NCBI GenBank assembly: GCA_963698385.1
Contig: CAVOQP010000010.1
Span: 529,518-593,517 of the forward strand
Direction: 5' to 3'
DNA length: 64,000 nt
From: an uncultured Acidimicrobiia bacterium
Lineage (GTDB): Bacteria > Actinomycetota > Acidimicrobiia > Spongiisociales > JAENVV01
Shown: positions 26,047-64,000 of the stretch, piece after piece
Layout of the letters: each line of letters starts with the position of its first letter
Numbering within the stretch: the stretch's first letter is position 1
Translations under genes and position numbers: made by a program
The notes under the pieces: model-generated
Database searches by the model: none
What the model saw: only the letters and a program-made list of their open reading frames with translations
What the model was told of the DNA's origin: nothing

Positions 26047-26184
26047 GATACTTTCTCCATGTACTCCGACGGCCCGACCCGGCTCAGACCCGACGCTCTT
26101 CGCCTCGTGGCGGCCTGCCCCGCCTCCTCGCTTCCCCGTCGCACGAAGAAGCCCGACAATGCCCTCCTTCGATGGAAGGTGGCC

Positions 26185-27474
26185 ATGGACGCCATCACCC
26201 AGTGGTACCGGGCGGGAACCCCCGAGGACGTCGACCAGATCGAACGAGACCTCTTCGCCGCCCTCGACCCCGTCCAGCGCGACGTGACGAGCCGGGCGTT
26301 CCGGGCCTGGCGGGAGAGCGTCGGTAGGGGTGGCACCATCGGATTCGATGCGGTGGGCCCGTCTGTCGTCTCCGAGGATGAGGCGTACTACCTCACTTCG
26401 GCCATCCAGCTGACATTGACCGACGACGACGGGACCGTCGAACACATCAAAGTCAAGCTGCGTACGCCGACGGGCGAGGACGAACGGGCGATCATCACGC
26501 TCGGAGCCGAGCCGGGCATCGACTACCTCGAAGTCATCCTCGACCCGGGTCAAGTGGACTCCCTCCTGATCGACCGGGGGCGGGCTCAGGAAGTCATCGC
26601 CGAGCTCTTCGCGATGGGGAAGCAGGAGTTCGACAAGAACGACCACGTCGGCGGTCGCCACTGTTGGTGGTGCGACCGGGCTTCGCTGTGCAAGCAGTAC
26701 CCGCCCCTCGGCGACAGCGCGCCGCCTTCGGGGACGAAGAGCCTCGTCCTCGGGAAGGGCACCCTTTCCCGGCTCCCCGAGTGCCCCCGGCGGGTTTCGT
26801 GGAAGGCGATCTTCCAGTTCGCCGACGAACGCTCTGACACCGACGACACCAGTCCGGCCCTCGCCATGGGCAATCACTTCCATGCGGCGATCGCCGGAGC
26901 CCTCCTGGACGCGGACCCCGACGGCGTGATGCGCTCCCATGCCCTCGCATTGGCGGCCTCCGAACAATCGGAGTTCCTCTCCCTATGGGACACGCACCGC
27001 TCCCTCGCGGAGGCAGAACCCGACCCTGTGGAGTTCTCCCGGACGGAGCTCCCCATCGGCTGCACGGCGCCTGCATTCACTGGAGGTGAGGCCACGGCCG
27101 TGACCTTCCTGGGGATCGTCGACGCCGGGGGCCGGGAGAGCGATGGCACCCCGGCGATCGTGGAGCACCGCACCACCATGCGCCGCGACCTCCCCTACCT
27201 CGAACAGGAGCTCTACGCCGTTGCCGGGGCGCTGGCGGTGAAGTCGGACCGGATCGCGGTACACCATCATTGGCTTCGGTCGCCCGTGGACGAGGCGTGT
27301 ACCCGACGCCTGTTCGAGCCGGGGGACCTCGAGCAGGCCCGCGACGCCCTCGTGGCGGCGGCGGGGGTGATCGCCGGCTGGGACCGGGAAGACGCCACCC
27401 ACGCCCCGCACGTCGTTGGGGAGTGGTGCGCCTTCTGCCCGTATCGGGTGCTCTGCACCCGCCACCGCACCTGA
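26185..27474 (+). CDS. PD-(D/E)XK (RecB/Cas4-like) nuclease-family protein with putative Fe-S Cys cluster in C-terminal half; N-terminal half unknown
   Basis: GGAAGG RBS then ATG at 26185. C-terminal half has GIVDAG...AIVEHRTT..EQELY (D/E-x-K and QxxY-like motifs). Terminal CAFCPYRVLC (Cx2Cx5C) plus an earlier HCWWCDRASLC. Confidence 0.45.
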   Translation: MDAITQWYRAGTPEDVDQIERDLFAALDPVQRDVTSRAFRAWRESVGRGGTIGFDAVGPSVVSEDEAYYLTSAIQLTLTDDDGTVEHIKVKLRTPTGEDERAIITLGAEPGIDYLEVILDPGQVDSLLIDRGRAQEVIAELFAMGKQEFDKNDHVGGRHCWWCDRASLCKQYPPLGDSAPPSGTKSLVLGKGTLSRLPECPRRVSWKAIFQFADERSDTDDTSPALAMGNHFHAAIAGALLDADPDGVMRSHALALAASEQSEFLSLWDTHRSLAEAEPDPVEFSRTELPIGCTAPAFTGGEATAVTFLGIVDAGGRESDGTPAIVEHRTTMRRDLPYLEQELYAVAGALAVKSDRIAVHHHWLRSPVDEACTRRLFEPGDLEQARDALVAAAGVIAGWDREDATHAPHVVGEWCAFCPYRVLCTRHRT

Positions 27475-27583
27475 GCCGCAGCACCCGGCACCCGGTCAGA
27501 ACCGACCTCGACCGACTGGCTTCCCGTCGTCGGGACCAATGCGGATCCATCGGCATAGCGATTCGTGCAGTCTCGCCACTGAA

Positions 27584-27601
27584 TTGTGAAACGGATTACA
27601 A
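27584..27601 (+). promoter_or_regulatory. Candidate Rex-type operator TTGTGAA-ACGG-ATTACAA upstream of nsrR-nosZ
   Basis: 12/14 match to the Rex operator consensus TTGTGAA-N4-TTCACAA, 33 nt upstream of the nsrR start. It could alternatively be the Rrf2 site. Confidence 0.35.
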
Positions 27602-27633
27602 TCGGATATAGACTCCGGGAGTCAACAACTCTC

Positions 27634-28026
27634 ATGCGACTCGAACTCACCAGGAAGACCGACCTAGCCCTCCGAGTGCTCAGGGCACTCTCCGGGAAGG
27701 GCCGCGTCCCACGGAAGGACCTTGCCGATCAGGCCGGGACCACGCCGCAGTTTCTCGCTCGGGTGATGAGTCCGCTCGTGAAGAGCGGTCTGGTCGAATC
27801 CAAGCCGGGGACTGCCGGTGGCTACGCCCTCGTGAGCGACCCCTGCACCATCTCGGTGCTCGACCTGATCGAAGTGATGGAGGGGCCGGTCATCAACGGG
27901 CGATGTGTGCTGCAGGGAGGGCTGTGTCCCGCCGACGGGAACTGCTCACTCCACACGGCCTGGTCGAGGGCTCGGGAAGCACTGATGGAAGAACTGAACG
28001 CCACAACCGTGGCGGACTGCAACTGA
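27634..28026 (+). CDS. nsrR: Rrf2-family transcriptional regulator with three-Cys Fe-S ligand set (NsrR/IscR-like)
   Basis: MRLELTRKTDLALRVL wHTH domain, then C..x..C..x..C (CVLQGGLCPADGNCSLH). Directly upstream of nosZ. Confidence 0.75.
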   Translation: MRLELTRKTDLALRVLRALSGKGRVPRKDLADQAGTTPQFLARVMSPLVKSGLVESKPGTAGGYALVSDPCTISVLDLIEVMEGPVINGRCVLQGGLCPADGNCSLHTAWSRAREALMEELNATTVADCN

Positions 28027-28044: not shown

Positions 28045-30048
28045 ATGTCCGGACTGGACACGCCGGTGGAGCGTAAGCGCATCACGTGGCAAACCCTGCT
28101 GGCGATTGCCAGCGTGCTCATGCTGATCTTCGCGGCCTGTACGTCAGGTTCGAGTACTGCAGATGTCGGTGCCGACATCATCGAGGCTCGCGGCCTGACC
28201 GATGCCGACGTCGAAGCTGCCCTGAAGACCTTCACCCCTTCGGGTACCCACGACGAATACCTCCTGTTCGCCTCCGGCGGACACGGTGGCCAGATCGGCA
28301 TCATCGGTGTGCCGTCGATGCGCCTCCTGAAGGTGATCGCCGTGTTCACACCCGAACCCTGGCAAGGCTGGGGCTACGGCGACCTGAAGACAGAAGAAGT
28401 CCTGTCCTCCGGCGACGTCAACGGCATCGAGGTCCGTTGGGCCGACACCCACCACCCCGCCCTCTCCGAGACCGGCGGCGACTACGACGGCCAGTTCGTA
28501 TTCATCAACGACAAAGCCAACGCCCGCATCGCGGTCGTCGATCTTCGCGACTTCGAGACGAAGCAGATCGTCAAGAACCCCATCGCCATCAATGACCACG
28601 GCGGGACCATGGTCACCCCCGACACCGACTGGATCATCGAAGGCGGGCAGTACGCCACACCGCTGGCCGGTGAGTGGGCACCGATCGAGGACTACGTCGA
28701 GTCCTACCGCGGCATGGTGACGTTCTGGAAGTTCGATCGGGATAGCGGCCGCGTCCTCGAGGACCAGTCCTTCGCCATGGAACTCCCGCCCTACTGGCAG
28801 GACCTGTGTGACGCCGGCAAGCTCGTCTCCGACGGATGGGTGTTCTGCAACTCCTTCAACGTCGAGATGGCAACCGGTGGTGTCGAGGACGGCAACCCGC
28901 CATTCGAGGCCGGTGCATCGGCGCGCGACAACGACTATCTCCATGTCATCAATCTCGAGGCCGCCGTGGCAGCGAGGGATGCTGGCAAGACCGTCGACAT
29001 GAACGGCTTCCCCGTCATCGAGCTGCAAACCAGCATCGACGAGGGCCTGCTCTACTTCGTGCCAGAGCCCAAGAGCCCACATGGTGTCGACATCACCCCC
29101 AAGGGCGACTACCTCGTCATCTCCGGCAAGCTCGACCCGCACAGCACGATCTACTCATTCGAGAAGATCCAGCAGGCGATCGCGGACGAGAACTGGACCC
29201 CCGACGAGTTCGGTGTGCCGGTCCTCGACTTCGACGCGGTGCTCGAGGCCCAGGTCGAGTTGGGACTCGGTCCGCTCCACACCCAGTTCGACGACAAGGG
29301 CTACGCCTACACGTCGCTCTTCCTCGACTCGGCCGTCGCACGTTGGACCCTCGGGCCCAACTACGACCCACCTGAGGAGCCATGGACCCTGGTGACGAAG
29401 ACCCCGGTGCAGTACAACGTCGGTCACCTTGTCACCGCAGAAGGAGACACCGTCTCACCGGACGGCAAGTACCTGGTGTCACTGAACAAGTGGGCGATCG
29501 ACCGCTTCGCCGACGTCGGCCCGCTGCTCCCGCAGAACTTCCAGCTGGTCGACATCTCCCAAACCGGAGAGACGATGCCGGTGATCTACGACATGCCGAT
29601 CGGGTGGGGCGAACCGCACTACGCGCAGATCATCAAGGCTGACAAGCTGAACGCATGGCAGACGTACCCAGAGGTCGGCTTTGACCCCGGCACGATGTCG
29701 GTTGACCCCGACGCCCCCCAGTTGGGCAACGAGCGGATCGAGCGCAATGGCACCGAAGTGGAGATCTGGATGACCGCCATCCGCTCACACTTCACGCCCG
29801 AGCATGTCTCGCTCAAGCAGGGTGACCATGTCATCTGGCACATCACCAACGTGGAAACGTCCCACGACGCCACCCACGGCTTCGCGCTGCCAGGCTACAA
29901 CGTCAACCTCTCACTGGAACCAGGCGAAACGGCGTCGTTCGAGTTCGATGCAGTGAACGCAGGTGTGTACACCTACTACTGCACGGAATTCTGCTCCGCC
30001 CTCCACTTGGAGATGACGGGATACCTCATGATCGAGCCAAACTCCTAA
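28045..30048 (+). CDS. nosZ: Nitrous-oxide reductase, Sec/lipoprotein-type signal (clade II-like)
   Basis: Seven-blade propeller region and C-terminal CuA cupredoxin motif HGF...CTEFCSALHLEM. N-terminus has lipobox LIFAAC and no twin-arginine. Confidence 0.9.
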   Translation: MSGLDTPVERKRITWQTLLAIASVLMLIFAACTSGSSTADVGADIIEARGLTDADVEAALKTFTPSGTHDEYLLFASGGHGGQIGIIGVPSMRLLKVIAVFTPEPWQGWGYGDLKTEEVLSSGDVNGIEVRWADTHHPALSETGGDYDGQFVFINDKANARIAVVDLRDFETKQIVKNPIAINDHGGTMVTPDTDWIIEGGQYATPLAGEWAPIEDYVESYRGMVTFWKFDRDSGRVLEDQSFAMELPPYWQDLCDAGKLVSDGWVFCNSFNVEMATGGVEDGNPPFEAGASARDNDYLHVINLEAAVAARDAGKTVDMNGFPVIELQTSIDEGLLYFVPEPKSPHGVDITPKGDYLVISGKLDPHSTIYSFEKIQQAIADENWTPDEFGVPVLDFDAVLEAQVELGLGPLHTQFDDKGYAYTSLFLDSAVARWTLGPNYDPPEEPWTLVTKTPVQYNVGHLVTAEGDTVSPDGKYLVSLNKWAIDRFADVGPLLPQNFQLVDISQTGETMPVIYDMPIGWGEPHYAQIIKADKLNAWQTYPEVGFDPGTMSVDPDAPQLGNERIERNGTEVEIWMTAIRSHFTPEHVSLKQGDHVIWHITNVETSHDATHGFALPGYNVNLSLEPGETASFEFDAVNAGVYTYYCTEFCSALHLEMTGYLMIEPNS

Positions 30049-30071: not shown

Positions 30072-30728
30072 ATGGAGGCCACCAATCGTTTCCTCGGCCC
30101 CCGGGTCCCGAAAGAGACCCGGGGGCGGAGGGAATTCAGACTCCCTACGATCTTCTTCGTCAGCGCAGCCGTGCTGTTGTTGGCGTCGATCTTCGTTCCC
30201 TACTGGCGCCTGAACCTTGCCGCGCCCCAGTTCCCCAAGGGACTCATCGTCGACATCTACGTCAACGAGATGGCCGGGGACGTCGACCTCCTCGAGGGGC
30301 TCAACCACTATGTGGGACTCCCCGGGTTCGACGAAGGCGCGACACTCGAGCGCCAGATCGCCGTTGCCGGCATCCTGGCGGTCGTGGGTGCGCTCGCAGC
30401 GGGATTGTTCATCCACAGCAAATGGATCGTCCTGTTCACGCTTCCCACGCTCACGTTCCCGCTGGTGTTCCTGGCTGACCTTCAGTATTGGCTCTGGCAC
30501 TACGGGCACTCGCTCGACCCACTGGCACCGTTCGCCAGCGCCGTCGGCGAGTTCACCCCACCGGTGCTGGGACCATCCAAGATCGCCCAGTTCGACACCA
30601 TGGCCCTACCCCACGTCGGCCTCATCATGGCCTTCACCGCCACCGCACTCGTGATCCTCGGCCTTCGGGCCCATCGCAAGGTGTACGAGCCGTTGTTCGA
30701 GGCAGCCGATGAGGCACCGGTTGCATAG
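30072..30728 (+). CDS. NosB-like integral membrane protein (clade II nos accessory)
   Basis: 218 aa, about 5-6 TM, immediately after nosZ as in clade II clusters. Confidence 0.55.
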   Translation: MEATNRFLGPRVPKETRGRREFRLPTIFFVSAAVLLLASIFVPYWRLNLAAPQFPKGLIVDIYVNEMAGDVDLLEGLNHYVGLPGFDEGATLERQIAVAGILAVVGALAAGLFIHSKWIVLFTLPTLTFPLVFLADLQYWLWHYGHSLDPLAPFASAVGEFTPPVLGPSKIAQFDTMALPHVGLIMAFTATALVILGLRAHRKVYEPLFEAADEAPVA

Positions 30729-32166
30729 GCGCCCGGGTACAGGGCCCATCGGTCGAGCGGCGCACCTCAAGGCGCCGAAACGGTCGGGGTACCTGCTGCC
30801 CGGCGGGTCCCGCACGCTCACCCGTCTCCTGGTGGTGGTGCTCGTCGTGGCCGGCGTGGCGACGACCTCCCCGGCACACGCGGTGGACGACCTCCAGGGC
30901 CTCATCGACGGCGCCGAGGCCGGGTCGGAGCTCCTGGTCCCGGCCGGGACGTACAGCCCGATCGTCATCGACAAGCCGATCACCCTCCAGGGCATCGGCA
31001 ACCCTGTCATCGACGGCCACGGAGAGGGAACCGTGGTCACCATCAACGCCGACGACGTCACCATCACCGGCTTCACGATCCGGTCGTCCGGCCGATCTCT
31101 CGACCACGAGGATTCCGGCGTCTTTGCCCAAGGCGCCAGGATCACCGTCACCCACAACGTCTTCGAGGACGTCCTCTTCGGCATCTACCTACGCCTCGGA
31201 GAGGACTCGGTCATCACTCACAACGTCATCGGAGCCAAGGATCTCGAGTCGGGGCGACGCGGGGATCCCGTGAAGCTCTGGGAGAGCCCGCGCACACTCT
31301 TTGCCGACAACTCCGTCCAGAGCGGCCGTGACGTCGTGCTCTGGTACTCCGAGGGGATCGTCATCCGGGACAACGTGATCCAGGACGGTCGCTACGGCCT
31401 CCACTTCATGTACAGCCACGACGCCATGGTCTCTGGCAACACGCTCCGGGACAACTCTGTCGGGGCGTTCCTCATGTACTCCTACAACTTGACCTTCAAC
31501 GACAACCTCGTCGTGGGCAACCACGGGCCATCCGGGTACGGGATGGGGCTCAAGGACATGGACGGCGTGGAGGCGTCCGGCAATGAGTTCATCGGCAACC
31601 GCATTGGGATCTACCTCGACAACTCCCCCACCAAGGTCGACCTCATCCAACACTTCACCGACAACCTCATCGCCCACAACGACGTCGGTGTCATGCTGCT
31701 TCCCGCTGTCCAAGGCAACGTGTTCTCGGGCAACGCCTTCGTCGAGAACCGCGAACAGGTCGGCGTTGCCGGATCCGGTACCCCTCGCAACAACGATTGG
31801 GCGGCCAACGGCATCGGCAACCACTGGAGCGACTTCGCCGGCTATGACGCCGACGGCGACGGGTTGGGAGACATCCCCCACCGGGTCGACGACCTCTTTT
31901 CTGCCCTCACCGATACGAAGTCCGAACTCATGATCTTCTCCGGGTCGCCCGCAGCCAGGCTCATCGACGCCGCCGCCAGGGCCTTCCCGACGCTCCGACC
32001 CGAACCGAAGGCGATCGACCCTTCGCCCCTCGTGGATCTCCCCTCGTTTGCCGCGCCCTCGGGGGCGTCGGCGCCCTTCGGCGTTACGCTCCTCGGGACC
32101 CTCCTCCTTGGGCTGGCAGCACTCATCGTCACCGCCGGTCGCCCACGCCGGGAGCTCCGCCCATGA
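30709..32166 (+). CDS. nosD: NosD, periplasmic right-handed beta-helix copper-processing protein
   Basis: Repeated beta-helix motifs (NVI.DN..G.., GNR.G.YL.NS) with signal peptide. Confidence 0.85.
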   Translation: MRHRLHRRPGTGPIGRAAHLKAPKRSGYLLPGGSRTLTRLLVVVLVVAGVATTSPAHAVDDLQGLIDGAEAGSELLVPAGTYSPIVIDKPITLQGIGNPVIDGHGEGTVVTINADDVTITGFTIRSSGRSLDHEDSGVFAQGARITVTHNVFEDVLFGIYLRLGEDSVITHNVIGAKDLESGRRGDPVKLWESPRTLFADNSVQSGRDVVLWYSEGIVIRDNVIQDGRYGLHFMYSHDAMVSGNTLRDNSVGAFLMYSYNLTFNDNLVVGNHGPSGYGMGLKDMDGVEASGNEFIGNRIGIYLDNSPTKVDLIQHFTDNLIAHNDVGVMLLPAVQGNVFSGNAFVENREQVGVAGSGTPRNNDWAANGIGNHWSDFAGYDADGDGLGDIPHRVDDLFSALTDTKSELMIFSGSPAARLIDAAARAFPTLRPEPKAIDPSPLVDLPSFAAPSGASAPFGVTLLGTLLLGLAALIVTAGRPRRELRP

Positions 32167-33017
32167 TCTCCATCACGAACCTCACCAAGCGCTACGGCTC
32201 CCAACTGGCGCTTGACGACGTGTCGATCGAGATCCCCGCCGGCGACGCGATCGCGCTCTGGGGCCACAACGGCGCCGGCAAGACGACCATCGTCCGCTCG
32301 ATCCTCGGCCTCATCCACTACCAGGGCGGGATCACGGTCGGCGGTCATGACGCGTTCTCGGAGGGGATCGCCGTTCGCCACCTCATCGGCCATGTACCCC
32401 AGGAACTCTCCTTCCACGATGAACTCACCGTGGCGGAGACGATGGAGTTCTCCTGCGCCCTCAAGGGCGTCAGCGGCGCACGGGCCAGGGAAGTCCTGGC
32501 CCAGGTGGGACTCGAGGGAGAGCTCGGCAAGAGGGTCGGGGCCCTCTCCGGGGGAATGAAGCAGCGCCTCGCCATCGGCCTCGCCCTGCTGGCCAACCCA
32601 CCCGTCCTGCTCCTCGACGAGCCGACCTCCAACCTGGATGCGGCCACCCGCGAGCAGATGGTCCACGTGCTGCAGGACCTGAAATCCGAGCAAAGGACCC
32701 TGGTACTCACCTCCCACAACCTCGGGGAAGTCGGCCTGCTGGCAGACCGGGTCATCACCCTCGAACACGGCCGAGTCGTGCTCGAATGCAGCCCCGGCGA
32801 ACTCGACGCGAAGCTCGGGATCTCGACCTGGCTCCATGTCACCGTCAAACAAGACGAGATCAGCCGAGCCATCGAGGCGATCCTCGGGATTGGCATGAAG
32901 GCTCGCAGCAACGGGACCGGCATCCTCGTCGAGGCGCCCGCCCAGGAGAAGGCCAAGGCCCTCGCGGTACTCGCCGCAGCCGGTGTCGATGTCCAGGACT
33001 TCGAGGTGTGGCGATGA
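32163..33017 (+). CDS. nosF: NosF ABC transporter ATP-binding protein
   Basis: GHNGAGKTT Walker A, LSGGMKQRLAIG signature, LLLDEPTSNLD Walker B. Confidence 0.85.
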   Translation: MISITNLTKRYGSQLALDDVSIEIPAGDAIALWGHNGAGKTTIVRSILGLIHYQGGITVGGHDAFSEGIAVRHLIGHVPQELSFHDELTVAETMEFSCALKGVSGARAREVLAQVGLEGELGKRVGALSGGMKQRLAIGLALLANPPVLLLDEPTSNLDAATREQMVHVLQDLKSEQRTLVLTSHNLGEVGLLADRVITLEHGRVVLECSPGELDAKLGISTWLHVTVKQDEISRAIEAILGIGMKARSNGTGILVEAPAQEKAKALAVLAAAGVDVQDFEVWR

Positions 33018-33847
33018 ACGGGCACTGGAACGCCATCCGAACCGTGGCCCGCAAGGAACTGCGGGAATCGATCCGCAACCGTTGGTTGTGGGCCATGGCC
33101 TCCGGCTTCGCACTCATCGCAGTAGCTCTCACCCTCGTGGGGCTTCCCGGCGCCCGAACCGTGGGGGCCGGGGGGTTCGGGCGCACCGCGGCGTCGTTGG
33201 TGGCCCTTGCCCAGCTCATGGCACCGCTCCTCGGGCTCACGGTGGGTGCCCAGGCGCTGGCCACGGCACGTGAGCGGGGGACCCTTCGCTTCGTGCTGTC
33301 ACACCCAATCGGCCGCTCCGACGTCCTCGCAGGGATGTTCCTGGGCTTGGGGAGCGCGGTCTGGGCGGCCGTGCTTGCCGGGTTCGGCGCCGCTGCGCTG
33401 GTGAGCGCGGCCCTGGGCTCCGCGGGACCGGCCGCGGTCGTCTTCACACTCACGGTCCTCTCCGGGTTGCTCGCCACGGCAATGCTCGCCCTCGGGATGG
33501 CCATCGGTGCCGGGAAGCGCGAGGCCTCCACGGCCCTCGGCACGGCCATCTTCATCTGGCTGCTGCTCGTGTTCGCAGGGGACCTGGGAATCATGGGGTC
33601 GGCCATTGCCGTCAAGATGCCGGTGAGCATCCTGTTCTTCTCGGTGATGATCAACCCGGTGGAGGCCTTCCGCATGCTGGCTGTGCCGTTCTTCGCCACA
33701 TCACTCGACGTGCTCGGGCCCGCCGGCTCCTATGCAGTCGACACACTGGGGTCCTTGGCACCCGCCACCGGCGCAGTGGTGTTGGCAGCGTGGATCGTCA
33801 TCCCCGGCGTGTTTGCATTGCGGCGATTCAATCGGAGTGACTTCTGA
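33014..33847 (+). CDS. nosY: NosY ABC-2 type permease
   Basis: 6 TM. ATG overlaps the nosF stop (ATGA). Confidence 0.8.
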   Translation: MNGHWNAIRTVARKELRESIRNRWLWAMASGFALIAVALTLVGLPGARTVGAGGFGRTAASLVALAQLMAPLLGLTVGAQALATARERGTLRFVLSHPIGRSDVLAGMFLGLGSAVWAAVLAGFGAAALVSAALGSAGPAAVVFTLTVLSGLLATAMLALGMAIGAGKREASTALGTAIFIWLLLVFAGDLGIMGSAIAVKMPVSILFFSVMINPVEAFRMLAVPFFATSLDVLGPAGSYAVDTLGSLAPATGAVVLAAWIVIPGVFALRRFNRSDF

Positions 33848-34443
33848 TGACCCCCCACCGAGCCCGAGCGTCGAGCCCGAGCCAGCGGCGCCGAAGCCCA
33901 CACGTGCTCGTGCTGGTGCTCGCGCTCGGGCTGTTCGCGGCCGCCTGCTCCACCTCCGTCAACCTCGATGAACCGCCTGGGCTGAACGTCGGCCGGGACA
34001 TCTGCGCCCGGTGCGGCATGATCATCGAGGACGTCAGGTTCGCCGCCGGCTTTCGGCTTGAGGACGGCACGTCCCGGGTGTTCGACGACATCGGCGGGAT
34101 GTTGGCATGGGGCAAGCTCTCCGGAGAACTCGAAGGGGCCCGCGTCTGGGTCCACGACTACCACTCGGAGTCGTGGGTCGATGCGACGACCGCTACATTT
34201 GTCCTGTCATCCGATATCCCGACGCCGATGGCGTTCGGCATCGCCGCCTTCTCCACCAGGGAGGCAGCGGAGGCCTTCGCCCAGGAGTTGGATGCCATGG
34301 TCCACAGCTGGGACGATGTCTCGGCCATGGGCGAGGCAGGAGAACTCGAAGATCACCACGGCGAAGGAGCCGAGGGAGCCAACGCAGACCATGCAACCCA
34401 TGCGTCCGAGTCGGAGGTAGAGCATGCACACACTGATTCCTAA
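33847..34443 (+). CDS. nosL: NosL copper-chaperone lipoprotein
   Basis: Lipobox LFAAAC and DICARCGMII motif. Confidence 0.8.
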   Translation: MTPHRARASSPSQRRRSPHVLVLVLALGLFAAACSTSVNLDEPPGLNVGRDICARCGMIIEDVRFAAGFRLEDGTSRVFDDIGGMLAWGKLSGELEGARVWVHDYHSESWVDATTATFVLSSDIPTPMAFGIAAFSTREAAEAFAQELDAMVHSWDDVSAMGEAGELEDHHGEGAEGANADHATHASESEVEHAHTDS

Positions 34444-34468: not shown

Positions 34469-34873
34469 ATGAAGAAGAGCACGATCGCGATCCTCTTCAC
34501 TGTCCTCGCTCTGATGGTCGCCGCGTGCGGCGGCGGGAGTGACGGCGACGGTGGGACCGCCGCGACCGAAGCTCCATCCGGAGCCGGCTCCGGCGGCGAT
34601 GCAGCCAACGGCGAGAAGGTCTTCGCCGGCACCTGCTCGGCCTGCCACGGTGCAGACGCAATGGGCATCGACGGTCTCGGCAAGCAGCTTGTCGAGTCCG
34701 AATTCGTCGCGAGCCAATCCGACAGTGAGCTTTTCACGCTCATCACGACCGGACGCCCCTCAAGCGATCCCCTCAACACGACAGGCGTCGACATGCCTCC
34801 CAAGGGCGGCAACCCTTCGCTCAACGATGCGGCGATTGCCGATCTCGTCGCCTACCTCAGGTCCCTGGCCTAG
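34469..34873 (+). CDS. Mono-heme c-type cytochrome lipoprotein (probable electron donor to NosZ)
   Basis: AAAGGAACCAACC then ATG. Lipobox LMVAAC and CSACHG heme-binding motif. Confidence 0.75.
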   Translation: MKKSTIAILFTVLALMVAACGGGSDGDGGTAATEAPSGAGSGGDAANGEKVFAGTCSACHGADAMGIDGLGKQLVESEFVASQSDSELFTLITTGRPSSDPLNTTGVDMPPKGGNPSLNDAAIADLVAYLRSLA

Positions 34874-46153: not shown

Positions 46154-47563
46154 TTGGCCACTGACACAGAAGCGGCACACGCGGTGGATGGTGCCACCGT
46201 CGTGACCCGCTGGGCGCTGGTGGCGGGCGCTGTCCTGATCGCCTTGGCCGCCTTCCTCCACTTCAGCGCATGGCTCTCGCTGGTCTTCCCGCCGGTCTTC
46301 GGCGGGTTGGGATTCGCGCAATTCGGACGACTGAAACCCATGGCCGATGCCGTCCTGATGTTCGGTGGCTTCTACTTCGTCAATACCGGCGCCCTCTACA
46401 TCCTCCTCCCGCGCCTCACCGGCACCACACTGCGGGATGTCGGCCTCGCGCGTGCCAACACCCTGTGGACGCTGCTCGTGGGCGTCGCCTCGGTCGTCGC
46501 CGTGGGTATCGGACTCGGCGACGGAAGGGCCGGCTTCGAGTTCCCGCTCATCCTCGACGCCGCCTATCTCACAACCCTCTTCGTCCCGGCCTGGATCACC
46601 CGGCGTGCATTCTCGACTCGAACCGAGGACTCGCTCCACCCGACCGTGTGGGCCCTGATGACGGGGTTCCTCGCCCTGGCGGTTGCCCTCGTTGTCGCCA
46701 ACTTCCCCCTCACGGAGGCCACCGGAGGTTGGATCCAAGTGGCGTTCGGACGCGGCCTCGTGCTGTGGACCTGGGTGCTCGGGTCGGGCGTCGGCATCGC
46801 CTGGTACGTGGTGCCCAAGGCATCCGGTCGTCCGCTGTTCAGTCGTCAACTGGCTCAGATCGTCGTCTTCTCGATGCTTCTCCCACCCGCGGTCGCAGGG
46901 CTGGCCGGGCTGGCATTCGGCCCGGTCGCCGATTGGGCCGAGACCATCGGCGTCGTCTTCCGATTCTCCCTACTGGTCCCCGCGCTCGCAGTGCCGGCCG
47001 GGATCCTCGGCACCATCAACGGGGCCGATGGGCCACGGATCGCCTCGTCGCCCGCCGTTCGTACTGCGCTCGCCGGCTCTTGGCTGCTCGCCGGAGGCGG
47101 CGTCGCCAGCGCGCTCTCCGCCTTTCCCTACGTCCAGTCCGTTGTCGGACTCACGACCTTCGAGGACGGAACCATGGCGCTCCTGGTAGGAGCCGCCACG
47201 CTCTTCGCCGCTTCGTTCATCTACCACTGCCTCCCGGAGGTGACCGGCAAACCCCTCTTCTCGACGACGTTGGCCATCGACCACATGAAGCTCGTGCTGT
47301 GGGGGTCGGGCTTGACTGCCCTCTTCCTCTGGTACGCCGGGATCTACTCCGGTGCCGGGTTCCGGGGCGGCGCCCTCGGGGGACTGTGGACGGCGGTCGG
47401 TGACGGATTCGGTGATGCCACGGACGGGGCGATCCCCCTCTACATGATCGCACTCCTCGGGATGGCGTTGGTGGCGGCCGGCCAGGTCGCCTTCATGATC
47501 AACGTCCTCGGCACGACCCGCGGCGGTGCGGCCACGACCGAGTCCGAGGAGGTGGCCGCATGA
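46154..47563 (+). CDS. 12-TM membrane protein with three internal 4-TM sequence repeats; occupies the ccoN-like position but lacks the heme-copper-oxidase His ligand set
   Basis: GAAGGAG RBS. 12 hydrophobic segments. Repeated motif Y.LLPRLTGTTL / WYVVPKASGRPLFSRQL / YHCLPEVTGKPLFSTTL, one per third. Only 4 His in the TM region and no HH pair. Its stop overlaps the ATG of the FixO-like gene. Confidence 0.55.
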   Translation: MATDTEAAHAVDGATVVTRWALVAGAVLIALAAFLHFSAWLSLVFPPVFGGLGFAQFGRLKPMADAVLMFGGFYFVNTGALYILLPRLTGTTLRDVGLARANTLWTLLVGVASVVAVGIGLGDGRAGFEFPLILDAAYLTTLFVPAWITRRAFSTRTEDSLHPTVWALMTGFLALAVALVVANFPLTEATGGWIQVAFGRGLVLWTWVLGSGVGIAWYVVPKASGRPLFSRQLAQIVVFSMLLPPAVAGLAGLAFGPVADWAETIGVVFRFSLLVPALAVPAGILGTINGADGPRIASSPAVRTALAGSWLLAGGGVASALSAFPYVQSVVGLTTFEDGTMALLVGAATLFAASFIYHCLPEVTGKPLFSTTLAIDHMKLVLWGSGLTALFLWYAGIYSGAGFRGGALGGLWTAVGDGFGDATDGAIPLYMIALLGMALVAAGQVAFMINVLGTTRGGAATTESEEVAA

Positions 47564-48336
47564 GTGAGTACCTCGCAGCCGCGGCCGCCAACATGGGCAT
47601 GCCCGAGTCACTCGTGATGCGCTCCGCCGAGGCCAAGGCCAAGGCTGGCGGTGTCACCGTCGAGGACCTCCTCAGGGAATGGGCGGGCGGGGAACCGGCG
47701 ACTGCGTCCGCGCCTCCGTCCGCGCCCGCGTCTGCAGCTTCGTCTGCCCCGGAGCCTGTGTCTGCGGCTGCTCCAGCCGCTCCCGCCGCGCCGGTGGTCG
47801 TCACAGCCGCTGCGACACGACGGCACGTCGTGGCCCGCAAGGACCCGGATGCTGCCCCCCTCCTCGTAGGCGCCCGACAGGGACACATCCGGATGCTCTT
47901 GACCATCATGACGGTGCTCGTCGTCGGCTCAGCCCTCGGGGCGCTCCTGCCGACCCAGGCCGCCCGCCAGGACGTGAACAACGCCATCGGCTCACAACCC
48001 GACTACACCGACCAAGCCATCAGCGGGCGGGACATCTACCTGGCCGAGGGGTGCTGGACATGCCACACGATGGTGGTCAGGGCCACCGCCACCGACTACG
48101 GCCTCGGCAAGGTCACCACCCCGAAGGACGTTGCGCCGGTTGCCGGTGAGTCGCTCGGGGTGCGGAGGATCGGTCCCGACCTCGCCCACATCGGAAGTCG
48201 CCGAGACCCGGCCTTCATCTTCAACTTCCTCGTCGACCCCGGCTCGGTGGCCGAAGGTGCCCGGCACCCCGGCTATGCGTTCCTTTCCGAAGACGAACTC
48301 GGCTCGCTGACCGCGTTCCTGATCGAGACGAAGTGA
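47560..48336 (+). CDS. ccoO: FixO/CcoO-like membrane-anchored mono-heme cytochrome c (cbb3 oxidase subunit II family) with N-terminal extension
   Basis: GRDIYLAEGCWTCHT...RRIGPDLAHIGSR...PGYAFL aligns with the FixO motifs GRNIYIREGCYLCHS...KRTGPDLARVG...PGYAFL. Carries about 100 extra N-terminal residues. Confidence 0.8.
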   Translation: MSEYLAAAAANMGMPESLVMRSAEAKAKAGGVTVEDLLREWAGGEPATASAPPSAPASAASSAPEPVSAAAPAAPAAPVVVTAAATRRHVVARKDPDAAPLLVGARQGHIRMLLTIMTVLVVGSALGALLPTQAARQDVNNAIGSQPDYTDQAISGRDIYLAEGCWTCHTMVVRATATDYGLGKVTTPKDVAPVAGESLGVRRIGPDLAHIGSRRDPAFIFNFLVDPGSVAEGARHPGYAFLSEDELGSLTAFLIETK

Positions 48337-48342
48337 GTGCCG

Positions 48343-49269
48343 ATGAGTGAATACCTCGCAGCCGCGGCCGCCAAGATGGGCATGCCCGAGTCACTCGTCA
48401 TGCGCTCCGCCGAGGCCAAGGCCAAGGCCGGTGGCGTCACCGTCGAGGACCTGCTCCGCGAATGGGCGGGCGGGGAAGCAGCGTCAGCAGGAAAGCCCGA
48501 GCCCGGGCCCGAGCCCAAGGTGCCGGCCGAGCCGGCGTCCGAGGAGGCGGCAGCACCTGCCGCTCCGTCTGTGCCGGTCGCCGAGGCAGGGCCGGTCGAG
48601 GTGGTCTACGAGACCCTGCCGACCCCGGCGACCGTGACCCCCGAAGAAGCCATGGCCTGGGACCAGGTGACCACCATCGCTTCGGACGACGTGCGGGAGC
48701 GACCCGGGTCGGTGATCCCCCGCTGGCTGGCAGCGGCGTTCGTCATCATTCCAGTGCTGGCCCTCGGCTACCTCTTCATGAACACCGATGGCCTCACGTG
48801 CGGTGAGTCCGGCCTCCTTGCCTCGGACTTCGAAGGCAACCTCGCCAACTGCGACATGACTGCGTACGTGCCGGGAGGAGGGTCCGAGGGCGCGCTCGTC
48901 ACTGCAGCTTTCGCCGAAGGACAGGGGCTCTATTCGTCGTGCGTGTCGTGCCACGGAGCGAGCGGGGAAGGTGGTGTGGGCCCCGCATTCGGGGACGTGA
49001 CCACGACCTTTGCCGCCTGCTCCGACCACATCGAGTGGGTCAAGGTTGGCTCGGCGGGTTGGCCGACCGGGACATACGGGGACATTGGGAAACCGGTCGT
49101 CGGGGGCATGCCGGGGTTCTTCGCATCGATGTCCGAGGACCAACTCCAGTCCATCGCCCTCTACGAGCGGGTCCAGTTCGGTGGGGAAGCACTCACCGAC
49201 GCCGGGGTCAACTGCGGCATCGTCGAGGCTGAACCCGCCGAGGGCGAAGCTCCCGCTGAGGACGCCTGA
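48343..49269 (+). CDS. Membrane-anchored mono-heme cytochrome c with the same N-terminal module
   Basis: N-terminal 47 aa about 90% identical to 47560. A/P linker, TM segment, CVSCHG heme motif. Confidence 0.75.
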   Translation: MSEYLAAAAAKMGMPESLVMRSAEAKAKAGGVTVEDLLREWAGGEAASAGKPEPGPEPKVPAEPASEEAAAPAAPSVPVAEAGPVEVVYETLPTPATVTPEEAMAWDQVTTIASDDVRERPGSVIPRWLAAAFVIIPVLALGYLFMNTDGLTCGESGLLASDFEGNLANCDMTAYVPGGGSEGALVTAAFAEGQGLYSSCVSCHGASGEGGVGPAFGDVTTTFAACSDHIEWVKVGSAGWPTGTYGDIGKPVVGGMPGFFASMSEDQLQSIALYERVQFGGEALTDAGVNCGIVEAEPAEGEAPAEDA

Positions 49270-63602: not shown

Positions 63603-64000
63603 TCCCGCATCCTCGTCACCGCTGCGGCGTCCTGGGAGGGCGCACGGCTCATCAATCGCCTCGTCCACCGAGACGGGGTGACGGTGATCGCCGTCGACGA
63701 CGAGGACCGCCGGGCGCTTCCCGTCCCTCTCCACCGAGCCGCCCTCGACACACTCGAGTTCGCCCACTTCGTCGTCGAAGCCGACCCGACGGCCATCATT
63801 CACCTCGCGACCATCGACCGCAGCAACCGCTTGGGCAAGGAACGCTCCCGGGAGGCGGTGATCCTTGGAACCCAGGCCCTGTTCGGGGCTTCCGAGCGGC
63901 TTCGCAACCTCACTCATGTGGTGGTGCGATCGGAGGGCCATGTCTACGGAAGCGGCAACCGCACCGCCCTCATCGCCCGTGAGGGGGATCGTCTCGGTGG
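63600..64000 (+). CDS. Partial CDS (runs off window end); possible NAD-dependent epimerase/dehydratase-like protein
   Basis: MSRILVTAAASWEGARLINRLV..., open to the end of the window. Confidence 0.35.
   Translation, partial: MSRILVTAAASWEGARLINRLVHRDGVTVIAVDDEDRRALPVPLHRAALDTLEFAHFVVEADPTAIIHLATIDRSNRLGKERSREAVILGTQALFGASERLRNLTHVVVRSEGHVYGSGNRTALIAREGDRLG

Follow-up and report, generated by a model that had tools for sequence, protein, structure and literature searches.

How nitrous oxide (N2O) reduction is controlled in the Acidimicrobiia is the question raised by a 64 kb stretch of DNA (the window) from an uncultured member of that class (contig CAVOQP010000010.1 of assembly GCA_963698385.1), in which a nitrous-oxide reductase (nos) gene cluster is headed by the gene of an Rrf2-family regulator. 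Organisms carrying clade II nosZ are thought to be important sinks for N2O, a greenhouse gas, and the regulation of nosZ in them is largely unknown; the known nos regulators (NosR and DNR/NnrR/FNR) come from Proteobacteria. Upstream of the Rrf2 gene, at 27584–27601 on the forward strand, lies the 18 bp sequence TTGTGAAACGGATTACAA, which agrees at 12 of 14 positions with the operator consensus of the redox-sensing repressor Rex (TTGTGAA-N4-TTCACAA, an 18 bp inverted repeat); the left half-site is perfect and both mismatches fall in the right half-site. The box is conserved and is no chance match; it forms an operator-like element within the core promoter of the Rrf2–nosZ operon, most likely a Rex operator. 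An earlier note on this DNA had described the box as TTGTGAA-ACGG-ATTACAA with this position and degree of match, and it is present as claimed, apart from its distance to the regulator gene, which is 32 nt rather than 33 nt, the ATG lying at 27634 and not at 27635.

Within the window the box is the sole match to the consensus with two or fewer mismatches, the number expected from dinucleotide-preserving shuffles being 0.01 per window. Allowing three mismatches yields two matches only, both intergenic, one being the box before Rrf2–nosZ and the other a palindrome before the rex gene, and at up to four mismatches these two are still the only intergenic matches ahead of a gene start; one extra intergenic match at this level, at 63890, has no gene start close by. 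Apart from these, no gene of the window has an intergenic Rex-type box (up to four mismatches) in front of it, and this holds for the alcohol dehydrogenase gene (adh) that follows nos too.

The box is also conserved across orthologous nos promoters. Close relatives were collected by a protein search with the Rrf2 sequence (75–91% identity) and their contigs were fetched; L-numbers denote such fetched loci. In six distinct relatives (L161, L164, L165, L167, L168 and L169/170) the half-sites TTGTGAA and ATTACAAT are invariant while the spacers differ (ACGG, TCGT, CCGT, GTGG, ATGT and TCGG) and the flanks vary too. Such a pattern, with the half-sites fixed and the spacer free to change, is typical of sites bound by a protein dimer. 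The nine distinct relatives in which TTGTGAA persists all share the first and seventh bases of the left half-site (T1 and A7), and the last base of the box, A18, is kept even where the −10 hexamer has been lost.

A single predicted promoter emerges from a consensus scan of the intergenic region, with TCGCCA and TACAAT 18 nt apart. Independent predictions give the same arrangement for L169 (TTGACG/18/TACAAT), L164 (TTGATC at −35) and L161 (TTGCCG), alignment shows TTGCAT at the −35 place in L167 and L168, and TACAAT is also kept in L161, L164, L165, L167, L168 and L169. The box is thus located between the predicted −35 and −10 elements and shares right-half bases with TACAAT; its centre falls near −16.5 if transcription starts about 7 nt after the predicted −10. 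Judged against these predicted promoters, its position fits repression rather than activation. Since promoter spacers are not normally conserved, an invariant 7-mer within one points to a protein-binding half-site. The base at which the right half-site departs from the consensus by a C-to-T change is the first T of TACAAT, and the deviation is probably fixed in the clade because that T makes TACAAT a −10 hexamer. Immediately before the −35 element a (C/T)(C/T)GTG block was noticed, the GTG of which is invariant in 10/10 related promoters (L161–L170 and L001); the block also occurs in L171 (CTCGTGAG).

With a promoter so placed, the resemblance to an operator could in principle arise from no dedicated site at all: TACAAT would serve as the −10 hexamer, TTGTGA as a −35-like hexamer for a downstream TAGACT, and chance would supply the rest. 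TACAAT does account for 4/7 right-half matches, TTGTGA and TAGACT are both shared by the window and L001, and the right half-site is degenerate in L001 and L162. TTGTGA, however, lies 19 nt from TAGACT and 7 nt from TACAAT and fits neither as a −35 element, and TAGACT is not preserved as a TANNNT hexamer in L167, L168 and L169, so that the pairing of TTGTGA with TAGACT was rejected. Full palindromes, moreover, occupy the same place in distant lineages and are strongly enriched there, and we regard an explanation by promoter elements and chance as very improbable.

These distant lineages were sampled through 80 nosZ loci from a genome collection. An Rrf2 gene directly precedes nosZ in 22 of them, all from Acidimicrobiia or Actinomycetota, and six of these 22 Rrf2-first promoters contain a box with at most three mismatches in their last 150 nt. 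The distribution is bimodal, the rest having at least five mismatches, and the background rate is 0.0037 per 150 nt window (binomial P of about 2e-10, or about 1e-8 when the window and L001 are counted once, by our own arithmetic). Distant Acidimicrobiia nos promoters have fuller palindromes 24–44 nt before the Rrf2 gene: TTGTGAAGGTTTTCACAT in L038 (one mismatch), TTGTGAAGATATTCACGT in L066 (two), TTGTGAAGCGAATCACGT in L015 (three) and TTGTGACCACGATCACAT in L063 (three); L060 has TTGAGAACGTGTTCACAT (two mismatches) directly before nosZ. Only nine matches with two or fewer mismatches occur in 1.39 Mb of sequence scanned, and six of them sit 110–513 nt upstream of a nosZ start. When 1.39 million positions are scored with a position weight matrix derived solely from 20 unique sites upstream of rex, the boxes of nos promoters take ranks 2, 3, 6 (the window), 7, 8, 12 and 13. 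One locus of the set is unusual: in L062 (6444–6813) a Rex-like box (TAGTGACAAGTTTCACAA), accompanied by an Rrf2-type motif, is found 373 nt upstream of nosZ, and no intact Rrf2 open reading frame separates box and nosZ, which suggests either a decayed regulator gene or a long leader.

A candidate binder is encoded nearby. The earlier note had placed a rex gene 10 kb downstream, and this is borne out at a distance of 10.2 kb. The product passes several NCBIfam Rex models, combines an N-terminal winged helix with a Rossmann NAD(H) domain whose motif GVGHLG aligns with GxGxxG, and matches the solved Rex structures from B. subtilis, Thermotoga and Thermus over its full length (E = 1e-34). It is also preceded by a predicted autoregulatory operator, which ends 12 nt before the rex start codon and lies 22 nt from a divergent FAD-oxidoreductase gene. 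Among 80 metagenomic rex loci (proteins 39–74% identical), the palindrome TTGTGA-N6-TCACAA occurs with at most two mismatches 10–62 nt before rex in about 35, and the closest of these loci (L081, 74% identical) has TCGTGAGGCTTCTCACAT at the same distance from rex as in the window. Because a palindrome is found at the same position in L081 and in about 35 rex loci, the Rex of this lineage very probably recognises the canonical operator. The gene order nos–adh–(oxidoreductase)–rex is partly syntenic, adh directly preceding rex in L081 (441–2182), and rex neighbours nos in three lineages. In two Acidimicrobiia metagenome-assembled genomes (MAGs) rex divergently adjoins a cytochrome c–Rrf2–nosZ operon (L030 8150–8809 and L071 3409–4020, both on the reverse strand).

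A different binder is suggested by the gene that the box precedes. Standing 32 nt before the Rrf2 gene, the box might serve the co-transcribed regulator as its operator, or as a second one, proteins of the Rrf2 family being commonly autoregulatory, and in L015, L038, L063 and L066 its right half overlaps the left edge of an Rrf2-associated motif (for example TTCACATAGTC). That motif is itself the main difficulty for such an assignment. A Gibbs search recovered it, with the consensus ATTACnTAGTCnnnnA[G/C]TnAGGAA, in 24/24 Rrf2-upstream regions, and it forms perfect 23 bp palindromes of 10-3-10 form in L030 (TCCTATAGTC-CTA-GACTATAGGA) and L071 (TTATTGAGTC-GAC-GACTCAATAA), whereas the box is shorter (18 bp with a 4 nt spacer) and accompanies a subset of the genes only. 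The copy of this motif in the window is the palindrome TAGACTC-CGG-GAGTCAA, 7 nt downstream of the box and over the predicted transcription start and leader; its GAGTCAA arm is invariant in close relatives. Because its motif accompanies every Rrf2 gene, this palindrome is the better candidate for an Rrf2 operator, probably that of an uncharacterised Rrf2 subfamily, and the box was rejected as such in its favour. Orthologues of the regulator (62–76% identity) keep the downstream motif without the box, which argues that the box belongs to a different protein, and a box of the same type also stands before rex, where an Rrf2 gene plays no part. The box is therefore improbable as a site for the Rrf2 regulator, and the suggestion of the earlier note that it might be the NsrR operator is made unlikely by the motif standing nearer the start codon in all 24 regions. 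Two peculiarities of the Rrf2-upstream motif may be added: its second arm reads AGT in one half of the sites and ACT in the rest, so that some of them are direct and others inverted repeats, and in L030 a copy is also found just before the adjacent rex gene.

The identity of the Rrf2 regulator bears on the second input that had been proposed for this promoter, gating by nitric oxide (NO) through NsrR. The protein is a member of the Rrf2 superfamily (TIGR00738, 90 bits against a cut-off of 73; Pfam PF02082) and has three clustered cysteines, as the earlier note had said, but with the NsrR equivalog model (NF008886-type, PRK11014) it scores 28.2 bits against a cut-off of 182. Compared with solved structures it is closest to generic Rrf2 proteins, CymR, RsrR and IscR, S. 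coelicolor NsrR being tenth of 13 matches. In 15 homologues C91, C104 and H107 are invariant and C98 is present in 14, giving a ligand-like spacing C91-x6-C98-x5-C104-x2-H107. The cluster ligands of E. coli IscR, which we take to be C92, C98, C104 and H107, are arranged similarly, so that the Cys3-His set resembles IscR and not NsrR; the GACTC/GAGTC arms of the candidate operator are likewise unlike what we understand NsrR operators to be. The defensible label for the gene is an Rrf2 regulator of unknown signal, the name nsrR being unsupported, and with the regulator not assigned as NsrR the gating of nos by NO is not supported and stands as conjecture. The regulator does share features with the Rrf2 regulators of clade II nos clusters and with NsrR-type repressors, namely a gene directly before nosZ, three clustered cysteines and a palindromic candidate operator, and differs from the NO-sensing repressors in falling far below the NsrR equivalog cut-off. 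Rrf2 regulators are reported to be enriched on clade II nos scaffolds (PMC6264515). The nos-linked subfamily seen here (the window protein and homologues P0002–P0042) has a conserved N-terminal sequence, MRLELTRKTDLALR.

The strongest competitor for the box is a regulator of the CRP/FNR family (GlxR/CRP-, HcpR- or DNR-like) encoded elsewhere in the genome, which would link nos to cyclic AMP, O2 or NO and not to NADH. The 16 bp core TGTGA-N6-TCACA is common to CRP, HcpR and Rex, and the box agrees with it at 9/10 positions, a level of match expected 0.99 times per window and hence not discriminating. HcpR, a CRP/FNR regulator of N-oxide metabolism, recognises wTGTGAnnnnnnTCACAw (PMC1274295). 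About 17 Chloroflexi nos loci have a CRP/FNR gene adjoining nosZ, and the palindrome TGTGAC-AAAA-GTCACA recurs in several of these (L032, L046, L069 and L079 among them). The distant Acidimicrobiia boxes are symmetric in the GTGA/TCAC core only. Several observations weigh against Rex itself. Position 18 is T rather than A in all five of the distant boxes. The right half-site, read on the other strand, is TTGTAAT, with a mismatch at position 5, one of the two half-site positions whose exchange cut binding by S. aureus Rex most (PMC2883068), and the ACAA portion of the right-half match is explained by the −10 hexamer. In L001 and L162/163, with Rrf2 proteins 87–88% identical, the right half reads CGAACAA, so that the left half and ACAA alone survive; L166 (76%) and L171/172 (62%) are without the box, which is absent from 16 of the 22 Rrf2-first promoters of the genome-collection scan. 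In L030 and L071, where rex adjoins nos, no canonical Rex box was found before either nos or rex, the intergenic regions holding the Rrf2-type palindrome and an element designated motif A instead.

Other features of the box sit poorly with a CRP/FNR site. Neither T1 nor A7 belongs to the CRP core, but both are invariant, and A18 is retained where no −10 hexamer requires it; together they point to an 18 bp frame. The box lies between the predicted −35 and −10 elements, from where an activator of this family could not activate. A class II activator site on a leaderless transcript would be a way round this, the centre of the box being exactly 41.5 nt before the ATG, that is at −41.5 if the transcript is leaderless. 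This arrangement was rejected as the main reading because the box is bracketed by a predicted −35/18/−10 promoter and because neither the window nor its relatives have a TANNNT hexamer 6–8 nt ahead of the ATG. A tblastn search with E. coli CRP and FNR and six Chloroflexi nos-linked regulators found no CRP/FNR homologue in the window or within 10 kb of any Acidimicrobiia nos locus; for this genome the search reached 64 kb only, which again tells against a firm choice of Rex. We therefore consider a CRP/FNR regulator unlikely, though a serious candidate, and the remaining probability falls to some other, unknown factor. At the clade II nos loci of this kind listed in the table, all from Chloroflexi apart from one from an Acidobacteriota genome, a CRP/FNR gene, in most cases immediately upstream of nosZ, replaces the Rrf2 gene as its neighbour, and (A/C/T)TG(A/T)GAC-AAAA-GTCACA(T/G) palindromes, at L032 9482, L046 7811, L069 2005 and L079 9542 among others, are probably the sites of these adjacent regulators.

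Rex is thus a plausible reading of the box and the leading one. It is favoured by the 18 bp frame, the position expected of a repressor, the presence of a Rex with a matching autoregulatory site, the lack of a CRP/FNR homologue near the locus, the neighbourhood of rex and nos, and a precedent in S. aureus, where the promoters of narG, nirR and nirC are targets bound by Rex and the nirR site, with three mismatches, is still bound about fivefold more weakly (PMC2883068). Of the redox control of nos proposed in the earlier note, then, the conserved operator-like box and a genuine Rex with its own palindrome stand, and Rex is a more probable binder than a CRP/FNR protein.

Rex operators are known from Streptomyces coelicolor (cydABCD and rex-hemACD) and S. 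aureus (adhE, ldh1, narG, nirR and nirC), and the box resembles them in its 18 bp geometry, its perfect left half and its overlap with the core promoter. As in S. aureus, the predicted target belongs to alternative respiration (there nitrate and nitrite genes). A rex gene with its own predicted operator lies in the same genome as the box. The box differs from known Rex operators in its right half, ATTACAA, where the clade has a fixed C-to-T change at a core position, at a base that also belongs to the −10 element, in its target, a nitrous-oxide reductase, in its host, an uncultured Acidimicrobiia lineage, and in having been predicted from sequence. It resembles CRP/FNR sites (wTGTGAnnnnnnTCACAw for HcpR; CTTGATnnnnATCAAG before proteobacterial nosZ for DNR/NnrR) in the TGTGA-N6-TCACA core and in the association with denitrification, and is unlike those N-oxide regulons in its conserved 18 bp frame, its place inside a promoter spacer and the absence of a CRP/FNR gene near Acidimicrobiia nos. 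A literature search, to which the comparative Rex-regulon study of Ravcheev et al. (2012) did not belong, found no paper connecting Rex with nosZ or nitrous-oxide reductase.

The following scheme may be envisaged. The operator would sit in the σ70-type core promoter of an Rrf2–nosZDFYL–cytochrome c operon, and a dimer of the Rex encoded 10 kb downstream would be its most likely ligand. When NAD+ predominates, as in a well oxidised, aerobic cell, Rex would occupy the box and block RNA polymerase; when electron acceptors become limiting and NADH accumulates, Rex would be released and the operon could be transcribed. The co-transcribed Rrf2 regulator may act at the second palindrome 7 nt downstream, so that the promoter would integrate two repressor inputs. 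We infer the binding protein, the direction of regulation and the signal of the Rrf2 regulator. The combined proposition, that clade II nosZ transcription in some uncultured Acidimicrobiia is set directly by the NADH/NAD+ ratio through Rex, together with an Rrf2 subfamily that has a Cys3-His set and its own operator and with a GGGAC-N4-GGCCCTA motif (see below), is more tentative than its Rex component and somewhat less likely than not.

That Rex represses pathways of alternative respiration and fermentation is well established, and the finding is predicted to extend this type of regulon to a new lineage, adding no new principle. A conserved repressor site within a core promoter, with a sensor of NADH/NAD+ as its plausible reader, nevertheless provides a concrete and testable hypothesis. 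If it is true, Acidimicrobiia of marine sands and sediments would start N2O reduction on electron-acceptor limitation and not by direct sensing of O2. The combined proposition, should it hold, would give N2O reduction in Actinomycetota its first regulatory model and the Rex regulon a new branch. The comparative data add two further nos-specific motifs and a defined Rrf2 subfamily.

Coordinates of the features discussed (window positions unless a locus is named; promoter elements and operators are predicted)
Feature	Position	Strand	Basis or remark
Short block TCGTG	27563..27567	+	Just upstream of −35; alignment
Predicted −35 hexamer TCGCCA	27573..27578	+	Promoter scans, alignment; 18 nt before TACAAT
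Rex-type 18 bp box TTGTGAA-ACGG-ATTACAA	27584..27601	+	Predicted repressor operator; rarity, conservation, enrichment, matrix rank
Predicted −10 hexamer TACAAT	27597..27602	+	Overlaps right half-site of box; promoter scans
Palindrome TAGACTC-CGG-GAGTCAA	27609..27625	+	Candidate Rrf2 autoregulatory operator; Gibbs motif, palindromes, conservation
Rrf2-family regulator, 130 residues	27634..28026	+	First gene of operon; C91/C98/C104/H107
Sec-dependent (clade II) nitrous-oxide reductase NosZ	28045..30048	+	TIGR04246, 812 bits (cut-off 625)
Membrane protein, 218 residues	30072–30728	+	
nosD	30709–32166	+	TIGR04247, 402 bits
nosF (ABC ATPase)	32163–33017	+	
nosY (ABC-2 permease)	33014–33847	+	
nosL	33847–34443	+	PF05573
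Cytochrome c	34469–34873	+	End of nos cluster
Predicted autoregulatory Rex operator ATGTGAGATCTCTCACAA	37787..37804	+	Perfect 7-2-7 palindrome TGTGAGA-TC-TCTCACA
Redox-sensing repressor Rex, 205 residues	37817..38434	+	NCBIfam Rex NF003995, 199 bits (cut-off 126)
Rrf2-upstream motif copies	L030 9464–9486 and 8810–8828; L071 4153–4175; window 27609–27625		
GGGAC-N4-GGCCCTA sites	L008 6309; L025 9495; L030 9418 and ~8849; L038 9432; L052 8868; L060 9743; L063 9445; L071 4106; window 27543–27558		Degenerate in window
CRP/FNR–nosZ loci	L004, L005, L009, L016, L017, L019, L020, L022, L032, L033, L034, L046, L051, L067, L069, L072, L079		

The genes behind the promoter form a clade II (Sec-dependent) nos cluster. 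nosZ starts 18 nt after the Rrf2 stop codon, behind a strong Shine–Dalgarno sequence (GGAGAAGGAGAA), and no terminator-like site was found between the two genes. Every called gene from nosZ to cytochrome c was assigned as something other than nosR, with the exception of the 218-residue membrane protein, although no search was aimed at nosR. The closest relatives of this nosZ are from Acidimicrobiia MAGs, with identities of up to 90%.

Upstream of the promoter lies a gene (26059–27474) for a 471-residue protein of the PD-(D/E)XK superfamily with the cysteine-rich motifs CWWCDRASLC and CAFCPYRVLC. A homologue (67–73% identity) is always found directly upstream of the Rrf2–nos promoter in this clade, with synteny in L001, L162, L167, L169 and L170.

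The GGGAC-N4-GGCCCTA motif, a 5-4-5 palindrome that could form a small hairpin, is a third nos-specific motif and possibly an activator site. As a regular expression it has 12 matches on both strands of the 1.39 Mb; ten of them share the strand of nos and fall in the 1300 nt that precede nosZ. The Rex-like box or the Rrf2-type palindrome usually follows 25–30 nt downstream of it. Elsewhere in the window, two consecutive open reading frames (47560–48336 and 48337–49269) have near-identical N-termini, MSEYLAAAAA(N/K)MGMPESLVMRSAEAKAKAG, and look like a tandem duplication.

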